A DNA stretch of 64,000 nucleotides from Candidatus Uhrbacteria bacterium (GTDB lineage: Bacteria; Patescibacteriota; Patescibacteriia; UBA9934; GWF2-40-263): the NCBI GenBank assembly GCA_016844925.1, contig JAERTI010000036.1, positions 11,053-75,052 on the forward strand. The letters are read 5' to 3'. Within the stretch, counting starts at the first letter, position 1. Each line of letters begins with the position of its first letter. Positions 8,039 through 63,863 of the stretch are shown here, in pieces. A program made the translations under genes and the position numbers. Below the pieces are notes generated by a model. That model saw only the letters and a program-made list of their open reading frames with translations. It made no database searches and was not told the origin of the DNA.

Positions 8039-8288
8039 TTTTGATGCAAAAGTAGGAAAAAAATAGAAAAAACTTCTAAAACTCTTTGAAATTGCCGCTT
8101 ATCCACATTTTTCCCTGTTTGTCTACCCCAGTGTTGCCAAATAACTAAAATCCACCAAAAGTTGGTGGATTTTAGTTCGATCTATTTAACCTTATCGCTT
8201 GCATCTCATAACTACTGTGATCTGATCTACTTAACCATGACTTCAGATTTCACAGTATCGTTTCTCGTGAAACACCATCAGAATTTTA

Positions 8289-8364
8289 TGGTGTCCCCGG
8301 AGGGACTCGAACCCCCATGTCATCCTTAGGAGGGATGCGCTCTATCCTGTTGAGCTACGAGGAC
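8289..8364 (-). tRNA. tRNA-Arg (anticodon CCT), CCA encoded
   Basis: Manual cloverleaf fold of the reverse complement: acceptor GTCCTCG/CGGGGAC, anticodon stem CATCC/GGATG with loop CTCCTAA, T-arm GGGGG-TTCGAGT-CCCTC. A hairpin terminator lies downstream at ~8143-8170. Confidence 0.8.
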
Positions 8365-34979: not shown

Positions 34980-35102
34980 TAGTCAGCCCATATCCGCCAC
35001 CGATACGTCGGTGGCCTCGATGGTCTAATTACTAATCTACTCCTGTAGAAACAACGAGATCTCGACATGGTCGAAATCTTTCGCTTCTACAGGAGACACA
35101 TT

Positions 35103-37397
35103 ATGCCAAACGCAAAACGCTACGAAACCCAGTGGGGAGGTCGAACCCTCTCCATTGAAGTGGGCAAGTTTGCCCAGCAAGCAGGTGGATCCTGCATCGT
35201 GCAGTATGGTGAGACCGTTGTTCTCGCCACTGCCACCATGAGTTCCCACGCACGACCAGGACTCAACTGGTTCCCGCTTATGGTCGACTTTGAAGAAAAG
35301 CTGTACGCAGCCGGCCGCATCAAAGGCAGCCGATTCATGAAGAAAGAAGGACGTCCTACAGACGAGGCTGTTCTCACCTCACGTATGATCGACCGCGCTC
35401 TGCGTCCGTTGTTTGATAGCAGCATCCGCAACGACGTTCAGGTGATCGTTACTGCCCTGGCCTACGATCAGGAGAACGACCCAGATGTTGTTGGGCTCAT
35501 TGCCGCCAGTTGCGCGCTGCACATGAGTGACATCCCATGGGCCGGCCCACTTGCTGGTGTTCGTGTGGGACACGTTGGAGGAGAGTACGTGCTCAATCCA
35601 ACGAAGTCACAAATGGAAGACTCACAGCTCGACCTCATCTTTGCCGGACTTAACGACAAGGTCATCATGGTTGAAGCAGGAGCCAACGAGGCAAAGGAAG
35701 ACATTGTCCTTGGAGGATTCTGGCATGGGCTCGATGAGATGAAGGCACCTATCGCCCTGATCGAAGAAGTCCGCGCCGCCCACGGAAAAGAGAAGCGTTA
35801 TCCTGGGGCCGCTGTTACAGATGAAGAAAAATCTGCAGAAGCAAGGCGAAAAGAGGTCGAAGATCTCGCTCGCCCGTATATCGTAGAGCAAGTACAAGAA
35901 CTCTTCTTTAAGGCCCCACAAGCTACAAAGGGCGAACGTGGAGCTGCCAAGAGTGAGCTTAAAGATCGTGTGAAAGCTTTTCTTGAAGAGAAGGGTGTAG
36001 AGGAAGAAGAGATTGGATACGGCACAGGCATCGCTGTTGACGTTCTCGAGTCTGAGATCCAACGCCTCGTTGTTGAAGAAGATCGACGTGTAGACGGACG
36101 TAGCACCACAGAGATCCGTGAGCTCATTTCAGAGACCGCCATTCTCCCCCGCGTGCACGGCTCTGCTCACTTCAGTCGTGGAGAGACGCAGGTCATGACG
36201 GTTGTCACCCTCGGTGCCCCTGGCGACGAACAGACACTCGACGGTATGCGTTACACGGGAACCAAGCGCTACTTCCACCACTACAACTTCCCTCCGTACT
36301 CCGTTGGTGAAGTAAAGCCAATGCGTGGACCATCCCGTCGTGACATCGGTCACGGGGGTCTCGCAGAAAAAGCACTGGCACCAATGATGCCAGACAAGGA
36401 AAGCTTCCCGTACACCATCCGTGCTGTCTCAGAAGTGCTTGGGTCAAACGGATCAAGCTCCATGGGATCCACCTGTGGTTCAACACTTTCCCTCATGGAC
36501 GCCGGTGTTCCAATCAAAGCTCCTGTCGCAGGTATTGCCATGGGCCTCGCCATGAACGAATCTGGCGACTGGAAAGTACTGACCGACCTTCAGGATCTGG
36601 AAGACGGAAAGGGAGGTATGGACTTCAAAATCGCTGGTTCCCGAGACGGGCTCACAGCCATCCAGATGGACACAAAGACCCACGGACTCTCCCGCGACAT
36701 TGTGCAGAAGACCTTTGAGCAGGCACTGGATGCCCGCATGGAAATCCTGGACGTGATTGAAAAAGAAATTCCAGCCCCACGTGCAGACCTTTCACCACAT
36801 GCGCCACGCATTATCTCTCTCAAGATCAACCCAGAATTGATTGGAAACGTCATTGGACCTGGAGGAAAGACCATCAACGAGCTCATCGCCACAACCGGCG
36901 TAGGTGCCATCGATATTGATGACGATGGTCTGGTCATGATCACCTCCACAGACGCAGAAGGGGCTCAGAAGGCTCTCGAGAGCATTAAGAACCTTACGCG
37001 AGAAGTGGTTGTAGGCGAGATCTATAAAGGAAAGGTTGTCCGCATCATGGACTTTGGAGCGATCGTCGAATTCCTGCCAAAACGTGACGGGATGGTACAC
37101 GTAAGCATGATGGCCCCTTGGCGAGTTGAAAAAGTTACCGATATCGTTAAGCTAGGGGATGAAGTGAACGTAAAGGTTATGGAGGTATCTCCAGACGGAG
37201 GCAAAATCAGCCTCTCTATGAAGGATGCTCCAGGAAACAAGCTTCCAGAGCGCCCAGCGTACAAACCACGTGAAGACCGTGGTGGACACGGACGCGGGCC
37301 ACGCCGAGGTGGAAATGGAGGTGGTCGCCCACAGGGAAACCGCCGTCCACCAGCTCCAAGAGCACCAAAACCAGCAGGGGGGTCTAGCGACCAATAA
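35103..37397 (+). CDS. pnp: Polyribonucleotide nucleotidyltransferase (PNPase) with C-terminal KH/S1 and Arg/Gly-rich tail
   Basis: Full-length PNPase architecture; AGGAGA RBS; start MPNAKRYETQWGGRTLSIEVGKFA. Confidence 0.9.
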   Translation: MPNAKRYETQWGGRTLSIEVGKFAQQAGGSCIVQYGETVVLATATMSSHARPGLNWFPLMVDFEEKLYAAGRIKGSRFMKKEGRPTDEAVLTSRMIDRALRPLFDSSIRNDVQVIVTALAYDQENDPDVVGLIAASCALHMSDIPWAGPLAGVRVGHVGGEYVLNPTKSQMEDSQLDLIFAGLNDKVIMVEAGANEAKEDIVLGGFWHGLDEMKAPIALIEEVRAAHGKEKRYPGAAVTDEEKSAEARRKEVEDLARPYIVEQVQELFFKAPQATKGERGAAKSELKDRVKAFLEEKGVEEEEIGYGTGIAVDVLESEIQRLVVEEDRRVDGRSTTEIRELISETAILPRVHGSAHFSRGETQVMTVVTLGAPGDEQTLDGMRYTGTKRYFHHYNFPPYSVGEVKPMRGPSRRDIGHGGLAEKALAPMMPDKESFPYTIRAVSEVLGSNGSSSMGSTCGSTLSLMDAGVPIKAPVAGIAMGLAMNESGDWKVLTDLQDLEDGKGGMDFKIAGSRDGLTAIQMDTKTHGLSRDIVQKTFEQALDARMEILDVIEKEIPAPRADLSPHAPRIISLKINPELIGNVIGPGGKTINELIATTGVGAIDIDDDGLVMITSTDAEGAQKALESIKNLTREVVVGEIYKGKVVRIMDFGAIVEFLPKRDGMVHVSMMAPWRVEKVTDIVKLGDEVNVKVMEVSPDGGKISLSMKDAPGNKLPERPAYKPREDRGGHGRGPRRGGNGGGRPQGNRRPPAPRAPKPAGGSSDQ

Positions 37398-38611
37398 TGC
37401 AACGACTCAACATTCCATTATCCAGACATAGCAGAACAACCCGTCATAACAGGCGGGTTGTTTGGATTCTGGTAATTTTTGGGCTTATCGCACTCGCTGT
37501 AGTCTGGAGAGGATCTGCAACCCTACTGAGCCGGGCAACCATCTTCTCCACTGCACCAGATGGCACCGTGGCCGCCGTCTATCTGCAGATAAACGACGAA
37601 ACAGGCCCCTATATCGATACATTGCTCCAGAGCGTACCCCTTATATCCAATAGAAGCATTGAATTAAAGGACATCGTGGAGGAAACTCGAGGGGATGTGG
37701 CTATATTTCTTACCGAGAATGGACAACGTTCTTTGGCCATCCGCTCAAATACAGAAGCTCTAGAAAGTCTCTCGTTAGAAGGAATAGGTGTGACCATACA
37801 GCAACATGGGCCCTTTTTGCTCCTTTCTGAGACACTTGTTTCCATTAGCGGGATAGACATCTCCCTCTCAAAGCCATTTTTCCCTTCGTTTTCGAAGACT
37901 TGGGTTGGTGGAGTTTGGGTTCAGGGCTATGGCCAGGGGGATATCCGGGTAAATAACCAAGGGGTTGAAGTTGCTTTTGAGACAGAAAAGCAACAAACAT
38001 CTGAAACAGTTCTCATGAACGATATGATCGCTCATGCTCTACTAAACAACCAAAATATAAATACCCCTCCACTCTCTTATGAGGAAATTTTTCCTTATTT
38101 TGGTCAAATTGAGGAGGTCATTATTCGTGAGAACGGAATTCTTATCTCCTTAGAACAGGGGACACTCGACGAAAACGATCTCACAAGCCAACTTCAGGAA
38201 ATTACCGCCCTAAATAATCCGTCCACGCTCACAAAAATAATGATTGACGGTAGTAGTTACGATGAACTTCAAATCGACCCAACTTTGATCACCGTAGAAG
38301 AAATAAGCATTGGCGGTGTGCGTGTTTTTCGCAGCGGAACACTCCTAGGGCTCCTGCAAGATGGTCGTGCCATTATCTCAACAAGTCAGCAGCTCGTTGA
38401 GGCCTTTGTAAAACCAGAAGAGAGTGAAGCCAACCTCTGTACAAACGCTTCAATCGTTGTGAGACCACAATCTTTGCTAGAAAGTATTTCATCGGTTCAT
38501 TACGACCCACGACTTACCCCACTCGCATTTATTGATCGTTTTTCAGTCATTTACCTTGAGAAGAATAAGTATTCAAACGTAATTCACCTTTCATCACATG
38601 ACTGTGGATAA
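37397..38611 (+). CDS. Hypothetical membrane-anchored protein (404 aa)
   Basis: ORF track; N-terminal TM; TAATG overlap with the pnp stop. Confidence 0.5.
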   Translation: MQRLNIPLSRHSRTTRHNRRVVWILVIFGLIALAVVWRGSATLLSRATIFSTAPDGTVAAVYLQINDETGPYIDTLLQSVPLISNRSIELKDIVEETRGDVAIFLTENGQRSLAIRSNTEALESLSLEGIGVTIQQHGPFLLLSETLVSISGIDISLSKPFFPSFSKTWVGGVWVQGYGQGDIRVNNQGVEVAFETEKQQTSETVLMNDMIAHALLNNQNINTPPLSYEEIFPYFGQIEEVIIRENGILISLEQGTLDENDLTSQLQEITALNNPSTLTKIMIDGSSYDELQIDPTLITVEEISIGGVRVFRSGTLLGLLQDGRAIISTSQQLVEAFVKPEESEANLCTNASIVVRPQSLLESISSVHYDPRLTPLAFIDRFSVIYLEKNKYSNVIHLSSHDCG

Positions 38612-38688
38612 GTTATTTATATCTCACCTTTTTTGTGGATAACTTTTCCTTTAGTCAAAATACCTCGAACACATAATGTATCCACCAC
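38604..38688. promoter_or_regulatory. Cluster of DnaA-box-like nonamers (TGTGGATAA at 38606 and 38634; TATCCACC at ~38678) in an AT-rich spacer
   Basis: Read directly; about 24 kb from dnaA. Confidence 0.45.
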
Positions 38689-38759
38689 CACAACTTCTTT
38701 CCTAAACTTAGCCAGATATCATAAATTGACCAGAGGTCAATTTTTTGGTATTATGTATT

Positions 38760-39150
38760 TGTAAGTCGTTCTTTCACACCAAACTCTTGGGAGGTTTCCC
38801 GAAATCACGTTGACAGCTTGTCGGCGGGTGCCCCACGCCCGTGTGCTTTAGGGAAACGTCTTACCGACTTTACTGTTCAGTGAACTGTAAAAACGAAAAC
38901 AAAAACGAACATTCCTAGGTTAGCCAGCACTATGACGACCTCGGTCGTTCGCAGGTAAAACCAATGAATGGTAAAGCGGAGAGTTTCTTACCGGTCCGTG
39001 TTCGTGCCCAAAGGGCGTTGAGTTGTGTGACAGCAAAACTGTCATAGAACCCAGCGCCTAGACAGGCCAACATCTAAACCGGTCCTACGTGAGGGCCACA
39101 TCTGAAGTAATCTTCATTAAAGCAGATGACATGGCCCTCTTCTTCTTTTT
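38760..39150 (+). ncRNA. Candidate structured non-coding RNA or long leader (~390 nt), with its own promoter (TTGACC-N17-TATTAT at 38727-38755) and a strong intrinsic terminator (GAGGGCCACATCTG...CAGATGACATGGCCCTC + TTCTTCTTTTT at ~39080-39145)
   Basis: No protein-like ORF. By eye it has no RNase P, tmRNA or SRP signatures; family unknown. Confidence 0.35.
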
Positions 39151-39184
39151 AAAAAATGGTGATACGCTTTCATCACTGTTTTTA

Positions 39185-39571
39185 ATGACAAGACGTATGG
39201 GAACCGATTTTGAAACAAAAATGAACGACTACTTGCAAGGAGAGAAGACTCGTCTAGAAAAAGAACTAGCGAGTTTTGCGCACCGCAACCTCAAGGCAAG
39301 TGAGACAGATTACGACACTGACTTTCCAAACATCGGAGATAAGGATGATGAAAACGCTTCAGAAGTCGCACAATTTTCAAACAACCTCTCTCTAGAAGAC
39401 GAACTAGAGAAGGCTCTACGCGACGTTGAATCTGCTCTCAAGCGCATCGAGGATGGCGCTTACGGGACTTGTAAGTACTGTTCACAACCAATCAACGAAA
39501 AGCGGCTGGTTGCACGCCCAACTTCTAGCTCTTGTATCCAGTGTAAGAAGACCCTCACACAAGAAGTGTGA
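39185..39571 (+). CDS. DksA/TraR-family C4 zinc-finger protein
   Basis: C-terminal CKYCSQPI...CIQCK; coiled-coil N-terminus. The start is uncertain (ORF track 39089; ATG at 39185 preferred because 39089-39180 overlaps the terminator hairpin). Confidence 0.55.
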   Translation: MTRRMGTDFETKMNDYLQGEKTRLEKELASFAHRNLKASETDYDTDFPNIGDKDDENASEVAQFSNNLSLEDELEKALRDVESALKRIEDGAYGTCKYCSQPINEKRLVARPTSSSCIQCKKTLTQEV

Positions 39572-61510: not shown

Positions 61511-61792
61511 TTAGACGGTGGTTTTTATTTTGCTCTTTTCTGGCGGCTCATCAACTCCTCCTTGATTAAACGGATTGCATCTCAGGATGCGCCACGCTGT
61601 CAGGACACCTCCCTTCATCACCCCATGATCCTCGATGCACTTATACCCATATTGTGAACAGGTGGGATAAAAGCGGCAGTAGCCTTGGGGATAGAGCTTA
61701 CTGGGAAGTCCGTGATCAAATGAAAGGGTCTTTTGGTACAGACGAATCACGCCCAGCAACGCGAGACGGGGGAGAGCGAAGACCCATCTCAT
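61511..61792 (-). CDS. yidD: Membrane protein insertion efficiency factor YidD
   Basis: ..[25 protein letters not shown].. is a canonical YidD. Confidence 0.85.
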
Positions 61793-62130
61793 ACAAGCAA
61801 CTTCGCCTTGTCCAAGGTCTTCATGAGCTGCTCTTCGATTTCACTCGACTTCTTTCCAACAGCTTCTTTGCGAACAATGAGGAGGACGTCATACCCAGGA
61901 ACAATCTCATCTAAATGACTATGCACAATTGTGCGCACTTGCCGCTTCACACGGTTTCGGTCAACAGCCTTTTTGGAGACTTTTACCCCCGCCGCTACAG
62001 CAAAACGAGAAACGTTCAGATCGTTCTTTTGTGCCTTCACTCCCACGTACATACCAAAGACGCTCTTGCCTTTGGCAGAGAGCGTTTTGATATCCTTATC
62101 TGATTTTAGCCTATGCGCCTGAGGCAACAT
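61789..62130 (-). CDS. rnpA: Ribonuclease P protein component
   Basis: ..[39 protein letters not shown].. The ORF-track entry 61789..62295 is over-extended into rpmH. The start ATG at 62128-62130 is directly after the rpmH stop. Confidence 0.8.
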
Positions 62131-62131
62131 A

Positions 62132-62269
62132 TTACGCACTAAGCTGCTTGCGACCCTTTGCACGGCGACGCTTGAGAACGTTCTTGCCGCCTGGGGTAGC
62201 CATGCGTGCGCGGAAGCCGTGCACCTTGGCACGCTGCTTCGTCTTTGGCTGGTGAGTTCGTTTAGGCAT
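62132..62269 (-). CDS. rpmH: 50S ribosomal protein L34
   Basis: Manual translation gives [45 protein letters not shown]; not in the ORF track (too short). Confidence 0.9.
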
Positions 62270-62450
62270 ATATTTTTACGAGGAAACTGTAACACATTTA
62301 AAGCATCGAGATGCTAACACACTATCCACAGATGATCAACCCATATACACAGTTGCACCCCACTTGCCCACATGTGGATAGATGATCTAAACTACACGGC
62401 ACGTGTAACTTTTTAGGAGGATTTTTGCCCTTCATTCATACTCGCACCCT
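62270..62450. other. Probable chromosomal replication origin region (oriC) between rpmH and dnaA with DnaA boxes CTATCCACA (62325-62333) and TGTGGATAG (62375-62383) and GATC sites
   Basis: Conserved rnpA-rpmH | dnaA synteny plus DnaA-box nonamers read directly. The DNA-unwinding AT-rich element is not obvious and may lie downstream of dnaA, beyond or at the window end. Confidence 0.6.
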
Positions 62451-63863
62451 ATGAATACCAATGAACTTTGGCAAGCTGTACTCGGTGAGCTTGAACTTAC
62501 CCTCAGTAAAGCCAACTTTACCACCTGGTTTAAACACACATTCATTTCACATGTGGATGAAAACTCTGTGGTCATTGGTGTTCCAAACATGTTTACCAAA
62601 GCATGGCTTGAAAAGAAATATTCGAAGGAGATCCTTCGTTCACTGCAGGAACTTTCAAACAACTCTATTAAGCAGCTAACTTATCGCGTCGAGGCGCGAC
62701 CAGCTGCCCCACAGGCTGTCCCCGTTTTTGAAAAAGAAAAGGCACCAGAGCCTGCACCATCATACGCCCAGCCAACACACTACGGGCAAACACACACCCA
62801 TACACACGCGGCTCCAGTAAAAGAAATCCGTACGGGTGAATTCTCACTTAATGGGAAGTACTGCTTCGGTACCTTTATTGTTGGTAAACAAAATGAACTT
62901 GCCCACGCCGCCTCTCAAGCTGTGAGCACACAGCCGGGCGGTGTTTATAATCCACTATTTATCTACGGCGGTGTAGGACTGGGGAAAACACACCTCCTCC
63001 AAGCGATCGGAAACGAGTTGATGCGCAAAAACCCTAATACAAAGATCCTTTACGTTACTTGTGAGCGTTTCACCAACGACTTCATTGGTGCACTGCGATC
63101 AAACCGCATTAACGAATTCAAGAACCGTTACCGCACTGTGGATGTTTTGTTAGTAGATGACATTCAGTTCATTACGGGTAAAGAGGGGACGCAGGAGGAG
63201 TTCTTCCACACGTTCAACCAGCTCTATCAAAACAATAAACAGATTGTCATCTCGTCAGACCGACCTCCTAAGGCGATCCCTGCACTGGAGGACCGGCTCG
63301 TCTCCCGCTTTGAGTGCGGCATGCTCGCAGACGTTGGTTCACCAGATTTTGAGACGCGCTGCGCTATTTTGGACACAAAATGTAGGGAAAAACAGTATCA
63401 AATGGAGCGAGAGATCATGCATCACGTTGCCACTGTTGTGCAGACAAACGTACGTGAGCTCGAAGGGGCGCTCAATAAAATCATCGCGTTCCACCAATTC
63501 AAGAACGCTCGCCCAACACTCGACACCGTAAAACCGATCCTCACAAGCTTCCAGCCAGCGTCCATTCGAAAGAGTGTCACGCCAAAACAACTGATCCAGA
63601 CTGTGGCTGTCTACTTCGACATTCAAATAGAAGACCTTCTTGGAAAGAGCCGACAAAAACGCCTCGCATTCCCTCGCCAAATTGTGATGTACCTCATGCG
63701 AGAGGAAATGAAGTCCTCCTATCCATCTATTGGTACTGAACTTGGAGGCCGCGACCACACCACCGCCATGCACGCGTACGACAAAATCTCGAACTGTCTG
63801 TTGGAAGATGAAAAATTGCAGCACGACCTAGAGCTCATCAAACAAAAGATGTACGCCATGTAA
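62451..63863 (+). CDS. dnaA: Chromosomal replication initiator protein DnaA
   Basis: Walker A GGVGLGKTHLLQAIGN, sensor/box VII, C-terminal DNA-binding domain (..DHTTAMHAYDKI..). Confidence 0.95.
   Translation: MNTNELWQAVLGELELTLSKANFTTWFKHTFISHVDENSVVIGVPNMFTKAWLEKKYSKEILRSLQELSNNSIKQLTYRVEARPAAPQAVPVFEKEKAPEPAPSYAQPTHYGQTHTHTHAAPVKEIRTGEFSLNGKYCFGTFIVGKQNELAHAASQAVSTQPGGVYNPLFIYGGVGLGKTHLLQAIGNELMRKNPNTKILYVTCERFTNDFIGALRSNRINEFKNRYRTVDVLLVDDIQFITGKEGTQEEFFHTFNQLYQNNKQIVISSDRPPKAIPALEDRLVSRFECGMLADVGSPDFETRCAILDTKCREKQYQMEREIMHHVATVVQTNVRELEGALNKIIAFHQFKNARPTLDTVKPILTSFQPASIRKSVTPKQLIQTVAVYFDIQIEDLLGKSRQKRLAFPRQIVMYLMREEMKSSYPSIGTELGGRDHTTAMHAYDKISNCLLEDEKLQHDLELIKQKMYAM

Follow-up and report, generated by a model that had tools for sequence, protein, structure and literature searches.

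What does the DNA between a 404-aa gene and a dksA/traR-like gene encode in Candidatus Uhrbacteria, a group of small uncultured groundwater bacteria? An earlier note on this 64,000-nucleotide stretch of Uhrbacteria DNA (hereafter the window) described three DnaA-box-like nonamers, two of them perfect, followed by a strong promoter and a region of about 350 nt without a protein-like ORF that ends in a hairpin and T-run. Our analysis confirms the note's observation: every element that it described is present at the stated coordinates. We find that positions 38761-39150 (+) contain a gene of about 390 nt, from the predicted start to the end of the U-tract, for a structured non-coding RNA that matches no Rfam 15 family.

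We first examined the sequence upstream of the RNA. The stretch 38550-38750 has 31-36% G+C. Perfect TGTGGATAA DnaA boxes lie at 38603-38611 (+) and 38634-38642 (+), in the same orientation and exactly 31 nt apart. The first box overlaps the TAA stop codon of the upstream gene, lies at about -158 from the RNA start and is perfect in nearly all lineages. The note's third box, GTATCCACC at 38678-38686 (-), matches the consensus at only 7 of 9 positions and is kept only in the closest relatives. A conserved motif at 38665-38673 (+), TTGAACACA (TCGAACACA in the window), matches the DnaA box TTATCCACA at 6 of 9 positions. A second conserved motif at 38702-38712 (+), the palindromic CTAAAnTTAGC centred near -54, is either a transcription-factor site or an UP-like element.

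The promoter of the RNA gene (38726-38754, +) is of the extended -10 type, TTGACC-17-TGgTATTAT, with the -35 at 38726-31, a 17-nt spacer, the TG at 38746-47 and the -10 at 38749-54. It matches 10 of 12 consensus positions and resembles a strong housekeeping-RNA promoter. TTGAC and TGnTAnnAT are near-invariant across homologues. The -35 lies inside the hairpin AAATTGACCAGAGGTCAATTT, which is followed by a T-run (38723-38743, +) and is probably the terminator of the upstream gene. In other lineages the stem sequence differs but stays complementary, and a few lineages have no hairpin and an A-run instead.

The transcribed region is predicted to end at an intrinsic terminator (39091-39150, +). Its hairpin (39091-39139) is long but, contrary to the note's description, not perfect. 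It contains 8 + 5 + 4 base pairs separated by internal loops, with a GC-rich basal stem (39091-98 with 39132-39), an upper stem and a U-rich tail, UUCUUCUUUUU. A hairpin plus U-tract is seen in nearly all of 32 aligned homologues. The + strand folds far better than shuffled sequences (-137 kcal/mol, z = -5.62), while the - strand gives z = -3.75.

We identified 34 distinct homologues, 51-85% identical apart from one near-identical copy, through synteny and an RNA-motif scan of metagenomes. All lie in the same pnp / unknown 404-aa protein / RNA / dksA-like / lspA / comM arrangement. The flanking proteins that carry a source name are from Candidatus Uhrbacteria or Patescibacteria. The 404-aa protein (37397-38611, +) is Uhrbacteria-specific, is of unknown function, has an N-terminal hydrophobic segment and is always encoded directly upstream. 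The dksA/traR-like C4 zinc-finger gene (39197-39571, +, 124 aa) is always directly downstream. An nhmmer profile found one copy of the RNA per locus and none in 32 loci from other phyla. As homologues were collected by synteny and by an exact motif pattern, the restriction to Uhrbacteria describes where the RNA has been seen so far and may not be its true range. A scan of a genome collection with ComM returned only distant phyla at 43-52% identity, plus one 67% hit cut off at the contig end, and a search of a viral collection gave no match.

The homologues support a three-domain secondary structure. RNAalifold predicts 55 pairs, 29 of them with compensatory changes. In the full model of 99 pairs, 86.8% of cells pair, against 39-50% when the partners are slid by 1-3 columns, 59 pairs change on both sides and 0 of 500 shuffles reach any of the observed measures. 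These statistics are somewhat inflated, because the model started from the window's own minimum-energy fold and the sequences are related. Invariant G-U pairs fix the strand as +.

Helix P1 (38783-87 with 38980-84) closes domains 1 and 2 (38783-38984, +) but, like the variable hairpin of domain 1, is only weakly supported. Domain 1 (38788-38863, +) contains the P2/P2x rod (38788-804 with 38847-63), the variable hairpin and hairpin P2b (38825-29 with 38837-41), which carries the invariant loop CCCCAC (38831-36). A candidate pseudoknot partner for this loop, UGGG in the 5' region, is not retained in two of the homologue loci (L046 and L077), and we propose none. Domain 2 (38869-38975, +) contains the 10-bp helix P3 (38869-78 with 38966-75), an A-rich loop of about 39 nt with invariant AAAACAAAA and CUAGGUU (38879-38917), P3a, P3b, a capped hairpin and an invariant GUAAAACCAnnGAAUGGUA. 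Three helices of this domain (helices 8-10 of the model) are 99.4%, 97.6% and 80% paired. Domain 3 (38990-39083, +) contains P4 (38990-95 with 39078-83), P5 (39006-08 with 39065-67) and the long hairpin P6 (39013-33 with 39039-59), with invariant internal-loop bases GAGU and AGAACCC. P6 is 93.9% paired, with 13 of 18 pairs compensatory, and P2b, P3, P3a/P3b and P6 are 94-99% paired. P4 and P1 are rebuilt with different sequences in different lineages, and P4 beats its shuffles in 10 of 32 lineages, against 2-3 of 32 for the controls. One homologue locus (L048) carries a 315-nt insertion that gave no Rfam hit to a group I intron or other known RNA.

We next asked whether the RNA belongs to a known family. 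Rfam searches of the window at gathering score, of 38500-39300 and ten homologue loci at E<=10, and of 148 kb of flanking Uhrbacteria DNA at gathering score returned only tRNAs and chance-level hits. By our estimate, the E<=10 cut would miss a relative scoring below roughly 20-25 bits. No RNase P (RF00010 or RF00011), tmRNA, 6S (RF00013) or SRP hit appears at E<=10 in the window region or in the ten homologue loci, and ARAGORN finds no tmRNA. The tRNA-like T-arm/CCA and 5' motifs of tmRNA match no better than in shuffles, and the domain IV motif of SRP RNA has at least 8 mismatches. An A-rich run followed by an invariant UAG resembles a tmRNA tag ORF, but its frame shifts between lineages and there is no tRNA-like domain. 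The three branched domains differ from the 6S RNA rod of about 180-200 nt with its large central bubble.

The two DnaA boxes are strikingly conserved. The exact pair TGTGGATAA-N22-TGTGGATAA occurs exactly once in 43 of 46 Uhrbacteria loci and in 0 of 32 unrelated loci, which is far beyond chance. Box 2 lies 91-92 nt upstream of the -35 in 28 of 31 lineages, although the DNA between them is poorly conserved. Consensus boxes thus occupy a conserved position relative to the promoter. These are the only adjacent perfect boxes in a window that also holds dnaA, although boxes with up to one mismatch are not enriched over the window as a whole (14 found against 9.3 expected).

These observations make it likely that 38761-39150 (+) is a stand-alone gene for a large, compactly folded RNA. 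The conserved sequence and fold with compensatory changes, the lack of a conserved ORF, the single occurrence per locus, the conserved promoter and terminator signals and the phased DnaA boxes at a fixed distance from the promoter are all established by the comparison itself. The rest is inference from sequence: that a sigma-70-type RNA polymerase initiates near 38761 and stops at the U-tract, that a discrete RNA with these predicted ends is expressed and acts in trans, and that DnaA binds the two boxes, possibly with the weaker TTGAACACA and CTAAAnTTAGC sites, and modulates the promoter. In this view, RNA output would follow the replication-initiation state of the cell. The long invariant unpaired stretches (the CCCCAC loop, the A-rich (ARN)n-like loop, GUAAAACCAnnGAAUGGUA and GAGU/AGAACCC) suggest that the RNA works as a protein-bound particle or through a tertiary-folded functional core. 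In E. coli, DnaA acts as a transcription factor at paired boxes, but prefers pairs spaced 2-3 bp apart rather than the 22 bp seen here (PMC11317965). The boxes also lie 90-125 nt upstream of the -35, which is far for simple activation or repression. Trans action is inferred only from the terminator and the downstream promoter-like element.

The note's interpretation is partly supported by these results. Of the readings that it offered, a novel sRNA fits best, although at about 390 nt and three domains this is a large RNA, while a riboswitch or attenuator controlling the zinc-finger gene is unlikely. Such a leader would consist of a signal-sensing fold of roughly 330 nt and a terminator that decides whether transcription reads on into the dksA-like/lspA/comM genes. 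In its favour, the RNA lies on the same strand, 46-100 nt upstream of the dksA-like gene in every locus, it ends in a terminator, the base of the terminator stem (GAGGGC/GCCCUC) is unusually conserved in sequence, and the 5' GGGAGG could pair with the terminator's CCUCUU. However, a conserved extended -10 (TGaTAcgcT, consensus TGnTAnnnT, 39160-39168, +), kept in nearly all 34 sequences, lies between the terminator and the gene, which therefore probably has its own promoter. RNAalifold on the full alignment did propose pairing of the 5' GGAG with CUCU in the terminator, but GGGAGG sits in a covarying local helix and the terminator stem explains CUCU. Neither inspection nor RNAalifold revealed a conserved antiterminator pairing. 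Adjacency says little either way because the whole neighbourhood is syntenic, and a folded part of about 330 nt is larger than nearly all known leaders. That the boxes instead serve replication control, as a titration, datA- or DARS-like or origin site beside an unrelated RNA gene, is similarly doubtful. The two perfect, high-affinity-type boxes are in phase (31 nt, three helical turns) in an AT-rich stretch 24 kb from dnaA, the dnaA-proximal intergenic region carries only imperfect boxes, and origin-proximal titration of DnaA has been proposed for E. coli (PMC12371093). Yet the fixed distance from box 2 to the -35 argues that boxes and promoter work as one unit and points to a regulatory site. 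Against an origin or a datA/DARS-type box cluster, there are also only two strong boxes and one or two weak ones, and we saw no run of DnaA-trio-like or 13-mer-like AT repeats. The note's suggestion of a second origin is less likely than a regulatory site, as cumulative GC skew falls steadily through the window with no turning point at 38.6 kb, and dnaA with rpmH-rnpA lies at 61.8-63.9 kb.

The note's other suggestion, a divergent housekeeping RNA, is not supported, and we consider it very unlikely. RNase P RNA is the first candidate: the size and strong promoter would fit it or tmRNA, rnpA is present at 61789-62295, and no RNase P RNA was found in the 64-kb window or, with only tRNAs recovered, in the 148 kb of flanking Uhrbacteria DNA. 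RNase P RNAs of the Candidate Phyla Radiation (CPR, Patescibacteria) are known to be diverged and can escape standard Rfam thresholds, as 10 of 35 complete CPR genomes lacked a hit (Lui et al., 2021; PMC8172020). That study nevertheless recovered all the missing RNAs with RF00010 at a lowered threshold, still with ‘many conserved features’ and including five genomes of class ABY1. ABY1 probably contains Uhrbacteria. AGAACCC...GCCUA resembles ACAGAACCCGGCUUA and AUGAAUG resembles an RNase P string, but these resemblances are superficial, and the AGAACCC...GCCU strand pairs locally with GGGCGUUG and covaries. Both P4 strands of E. coli rnpB, GAGGAAAGUCCGGGC and ACAGAACCCGGCUUA, match with 4-6 mismatches, no better than in shuffles, and a profile of the family does not hit rnpB even at E<=1000. 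The supported fold leaves no free conserved strands for a P4-type long-range helix, and the 5' and 3' ends do not pair as in RNase P P1: the 5' 20 nt are unpaired and the 3' end is a terminator. There is also no CCA-ending acceptor and no in-frame tag ORF. A small conserved protein is all but excluded. Short ORFs exist on both strands, for example 38930-39073 (-) at 47 aa, and an invariant AUG lies within AAUGGUA. However, the longest ORFs differ in strand, position and length among the 32 homologues, the ORF from the invariant AUG runs 6-40 codons with unrelated sequences, indels are not multiples of three, substitutions within helices are compensatory and Pfam finds nothing.

The closest parallels are the large structured bacterial RNAs of unknown or recently found function: OLE, the raiA motif, ROOL, GOLLD and HEARO. 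As in those families, the RNA is several hundred nucleotides long, has multiple domains, combines long invariant unpaired stretches with covarying helices, is restricted to one lineage and was recognised by comparative genomics alone. Like OLE next to oapA, it sits beside a lineage-specific, predicted membrane-anchored protein. These families are all in Rfam and none was hit. The Uhrbacteria RNA occurs in a different phylum, has a single fixed chromosomal position rather than an association with phages or mobile elements, and has DnaA boxes upstream. DnaA-regulated promoters of E. coli, B. subtilis and Caulobacter share consensus boxes in pairs upstream of a promoter, and in E. coli DnaA coordinates replication with genes of nucleotide, repair and RNA metabolism (PMC11317965). 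A large non-coding RNA as the regulated product has, to our knowledge, not been described. Caulobacter crescentus CcnA is likewise a non-coding RNA tied to the replication and cell-cycle machinery, but it is a short base-pairing sRNA that modulates the cell-cycle regulators CtrA and GcrA (PMC8959179). CcnA is transcribed at the origin under CtrA control. The Uhrbacteria RNA has no homology to it, is far larger, and has conserved parts that look like tertiary or protein-binding modules. As with 6S RNA and Ms1, which bind RNA polymerase, the RNA is probably abundant and stand-alone with a housekeeping-type promoter, and lies next to a gene for an RNA-polymerase-binding (DksA-like) protein, but it is about twice the length of 6S RNA.

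Large, intricately folded bacterial RNAs are rare, and past examples turned out to be ribozymes, guide RNAs for transposon nucleases, membrane-associated particles or self-assembling cages. Almost nothing is known about regulatory or structural RNAs in the CPR, a large share of bacterial diversity with tiny genomes and few regulators, and our literature searches found no described CPR-specific RNA of this kind. A more speculative possibility, which we hold only tentatively, is that the RNA represents a new class of tertiary-folded ribonucleoprotein scaffold or ribozyme and a core gene of Uhrbacteria. DnaA would set its transcription directly through the phased boxes, and the RNA would act as a cell-cycle or growth-state signal in bacteria with very few conventional regulators. 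Such a promoter architecture would be an unusual link between replication initiation and a non-coding RNA. The RNA is better conserved than the protein gene upstream of it (51-85% identity, against 27-58% for the 404-aa protein) and therefore appears to be under strong selection. The alignment can seed a covariance model for annotating Uhrbacteria genomes, which would also stop gene callers from extending the dksA-like ORF into the terminator: the product is currently called at 146 aa and the mechanical ORF is 160 aa, against 124 aa.

The interval lies between a 404-aa open reading frame (37397-38611, + strand) and a 124-aa DksA/TraR-type zinc-finger gene (39197-39571, +). The latter gene is followed by lspA and a comM/Mg-chelatase-like gene, and pnp lies upstream. 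Two perfect TGTGGATAA nonamers are located at 38603-38611 and 38634-38642, the first of which overlaps the stop codon of the upstream gene, in a stretch with 31-36% G+C. A promoter-like site (TTGACC-17-TATTAT with a TG extension) lies at 38726-38754, with its -35 inside a hairpin that is followed by a T-run. About 390 nt follow that contain no substantial open reading frame and end in a long, imperfect hairpin (39091-39139) and a U-rich tail. As RNA, the + strand folds at -137 kcal/mol (z = -5.62 against dinucleotide shuffles), while the - strand gives z = -3.75. The description of this region in the earlier note is thus accurate, with the single qualification that its 'third DnaA box' is a 7-of-9 match that is kept only in close relatives.

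We found no match between this region and a known RNA family. Rfam 15 at gathering score identified only three tRNAs in the 64-kb window, and a search of 38500-39300 with E<=10 returned only two chance-level eukaryotic families. ARAGORN identified no tmRNA. The same permissive Rfam search of ten homologue loci gave no consistent family at the RNA position, and a gathering-score scan of 148 kb of related contigs gave only tRNAs.

To identify relatives, we first considered the upstream 404-aa protein, which has only 17 relatives in the large protein database. Those that carry a name come from Candidatus Uhrbacteria. Their contigs all show the same gene order: rpsO, an NYN-domain gene, pnp, the 404-aa gene, a gap of 520-650 nt, the dksA-like gene, lspA and comM. 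In one of these loci (L048), the gap extends to about 1 kb because of an insertion. The 404-aa protein has no Pfam or NCBIfam domain. It has an Arg-rich N-terminal tail and one hydrophobic segment, and its start overlaps the pnp stop codon (ATGA). Its N-terminal third is better conserved (38-50%) than the rest (about 28-30%), and it co-occurs with the RNA in every locus. The neighboring PNPase (35067-37397) carries an Arg/Gly/Pro-rich C-terminal extension of about 60 aa (...REDRGGHGRGPRRGGNGGGRPQGNRRPPAPRAPKPAGG...), which is not known to be part of the standard PNPase domain set.

Alignment of the gaps between the 404-aa and dksA-like genes revealed long invariant blocks. We converted two of these blocks into the pattern CTAGGTTNGC-N22-45-AAAACCANNNAATGGTA, and a scan of the metagenome collection with this pattern returned 30 stretches. 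After removal of duplicates, we obtained 34 distinct sequences that are 51-85% identical to the window RNA, plus one near-identical copy. tblastn shows the same flanking genes wherever the contig is long enough. An nhmmer profile finds exactly one copy per Uhrbacteria locus, none elsewhere in the window and none in 32 comM loci from other phyla, and the pattern has no match in the viral collection. The 120 best of 720 DksA-like relatives are all at least 69% identical and, where named, are Uhrbacteria or Patescibacteria.

RNAalifold on a 32-sequence alignment of the homologues predicts 55 pairs, 29 of which show compensatory changes. We combined this prediction with per-domain realignment and the window's own fold to write a 99-pair model. 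The model begins with an unpaired 5' leader of about 20 nt that contains the conserved GUUCUUU. Helix P1 (38783-87 with 38980-84) closes domains 1 and 2. Domain 1 consists of a 16-bp rod (38788-804 with 38847-63) that carries a variable hairpin and hairpin P2b, whose CCCCAC loop is invariant. In domain 2, the 10-bp helix P3 (38869-78 with 38966-75) has a loop of about 39 nt on its 5' side that contains the invariant AAAACAAAA and CUAGGUU and is followed by P3a, P3b and a UUCG/CUUG-capped hairpin, while the 3' side reads the invariant GUAAAACCAnnGAAUGGUA. In domain 3, P4 (38990-95 with 39078-83) and P5 close the long hairpin P6 (39013-33 with 39039-59), whose internal loops, GAGU and AGAACCC, are invariant. 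The terminator completes the model.

Counted on the 32-sequence alignment, 86.8% of cells form standard pairs, against 38.7-50.4% when the 3' partners are slid by 1-3 columns. Changes on both sides are seen for 59 pairs, against 27-40 in the slid controls, and none of 500 column shuffles reaches any of the measures. Helices P2b, P3, P3a/P3b and P6 are 94-99% paired, and 13 of 18 P6 pairs have double changes. Invariant G-U pairs, which would be A-C on the other strand, fix the transcript to the + strand. P4 and P1 are poorly aligned by MAFFT but, taken lineage by lineage, a helix occurs at the same place with different sequences (for example, ACCGGU/ACCGGU, GCCGGA/UCCGGC, CUAGUUG/CAACUGG, GUUGGAUA/UGUCCAAC and AGGACUAU/AUGGUCUU). 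In a shuffle test, P4 is significant in 10 of 32 lineages, against 2-3 of 32 for control segment pairs. P1 is weaker (3 of 32 lineages), and we therefore regard it as probable rather than shown.

The RNA evolves by gain and loss of peripheral helices around a fixed core. One clade of homologues (L053, L055, L058 and L074) lacks P1 and the variable hairpin of domain 1 altogether, giving a reduced version of 343-355 nt. Two other homologues (L056:5115-5238 and L057:1072-1226) carry 20-50 nt expansions of the variable hairpin. In L048 (L048:4313-4627, also L048:5098-5123), a 315-nt insertion sits between the RNA promoter and the conserved RNA core and is flanked by inverted repeats of about 22 nt (GACATCACATCATAAAATAGGA / TCCTATTTCATGATGTGATGTC). 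A related palindrome recurs downstream of the terminator. This insertion looks like a small mobile or palindromic element and has no Rfam match.

The region is not coding. The longest open reading frames in the 32 homologues differ in strand, position and length. The frame that starts at the invariant AUG within AAUGGUA runs 6-40 codons with unrelated sequences, and Pfam finds nothing in the window's short open reading frames.

Conserved transcription signals suggest that the RNA is its own transcription unit, an inference made from sequence only. TTGAC, a 17-nt spacer and TGnTAnnAT are near-invariant, and a hairpin plus U-tract closes the RNA in nearly all of the 32 aligned homologues. Some 10-15 nt after the U-tract, an invariant TGnTAnnnT (39160-39168 in the window) resembles an extended -10 for the dksA-like gene. 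Gene callers extend this gene upstream into the terminator: the product is called at 146 aa in public contigs and the mechanical open reading frame from GTG 39089 is 160 aa, whereas the conserved protein is 124 aa and starts at ATG 39197.

In every lineage with enough upstream sequence, two DnaA boxes lie in the same orientation, exactly 31 nt start to start, at about -158 and -127 from the RNA start. The exact string TGTGGATAA-N22-TGTGGATAA occurs once in 43 of 46 Uhrbacteria loci and in none of the 32 other loci. Two further loci have a single mismatch and one is truncated. Box 2 lies 91-92 nt from the -35 in 28 of 31 lineages, and the intervening DNA is poorly conserved apart from two motifs, TTGAACACA and the palindrome CTAAAnTTAGC centered near -54. 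A weak TnTnnATAA element often follows box 1 after 2 bp, which is the spacing that E. coli DnaA prefers for paired sites (PMC11317965).

The window also contains rpmH-rnpA (61789-62295, -) and dnaA (62451-63863, +). Their intergenic region (62271-62450) has only two imperfect DnaA boxes (TGTGGATAG, in opposite orientations), and the only adjacent perfect boxes in the window are 24 kb away, at the RNA locus. Cumulative GC skew declines steadily with no turn at 38.6 kb or anywhere else in the window, so the origin was not located. The two perfect boxes are thus best read, from sequence alone, as part of a putative control region of the RNA promoter rather than as an origin.

What the analysis itself establishes is a conserved, single-copy, non-coding, three-domain RNA gene with conserved promoter and terminator signals and a phased DnaA-box pair. 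The remainder of our reading is inference: that a discrete RNA of about 390 nt is released and acts in trans, and that DnaA binds the upstream boxes and tunes its synthesis. The invariant unpaired modules (the CCCCAC loop, an (ARN)n-like A-rich loop and two internal-loop motifs) point to protein binding or a tertiary-folded active core rather than simple antisense pairing. The interpretation in the earlier note, which left open a divergent housekeeping RNA, a riboswitch or attenuator for the zinc-finger gene and a novel sRNA, is partly supported. We regard it as unlikely that the RNA is a cis leader for the dksA-like operon, or that the boxes serve replication control independently of the RNA. 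A divergent housekeeping RNA is considered very unlikely, and a small protein more improbable still.

Among housekeeping RNAs, RNase P RNA deserves particular consideration. Ten of 35 complete CPR genomes were found to lack an RNase P RNA hit at standard thresholds, but all were recovered with RF00010 at a lowered cut-off and kept many conserved features (Lui et al., PMC8172020). These included five genomes of class ABY1. ABY1 is the class that contains Uhrbacteria. Here, we obtained no hit at E<=10 in eleven sequences, although this cut-off corresponds, by our estimate, to roughly 20-25 bits and a still weaker relative would be missed. The two P4 strands from E. coli rnpB match no better than in shuffles, and the family profile gives no alignment to rnpB even at E<=1000. 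Moreover, the covariation-supported fold leaves no conserved free strands for a P4-type helix or for pairing of the ends.

The RNA resembles the orphan large RNAs OLE, raiA and ROOL/GOLLD in size, in its mix of invariant loops and covarying helices and in lineage restriction, but it matches none of them. Literature searches identified no paper describing it or any CPR-specific structured RNA of this kind, and to our knowledge no large ncRNA gene behind a phased pair of DnaA boxes has been described. We therefore class it as a new RNA family of unknown function, although a stand-alone ncRNA gene is itself a familiar kind of thing.

Two further features of the window lie outside this locus. The third perfect DnaA box of the window (8099-8107, - strand) is found in the AT-rich gap upstream of tRNA-Arg (8289-8364, -), next to a terminator-like hairpin, AAAATCCACCAAAAGTTGGTGGATTTT (8150-8176). 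Between 48000 and 60000, G+C rises to 60-65% over about 12 kb, against 40-55% elsewhere in the window, and many long overlapping open reading frames occur there on both strands.
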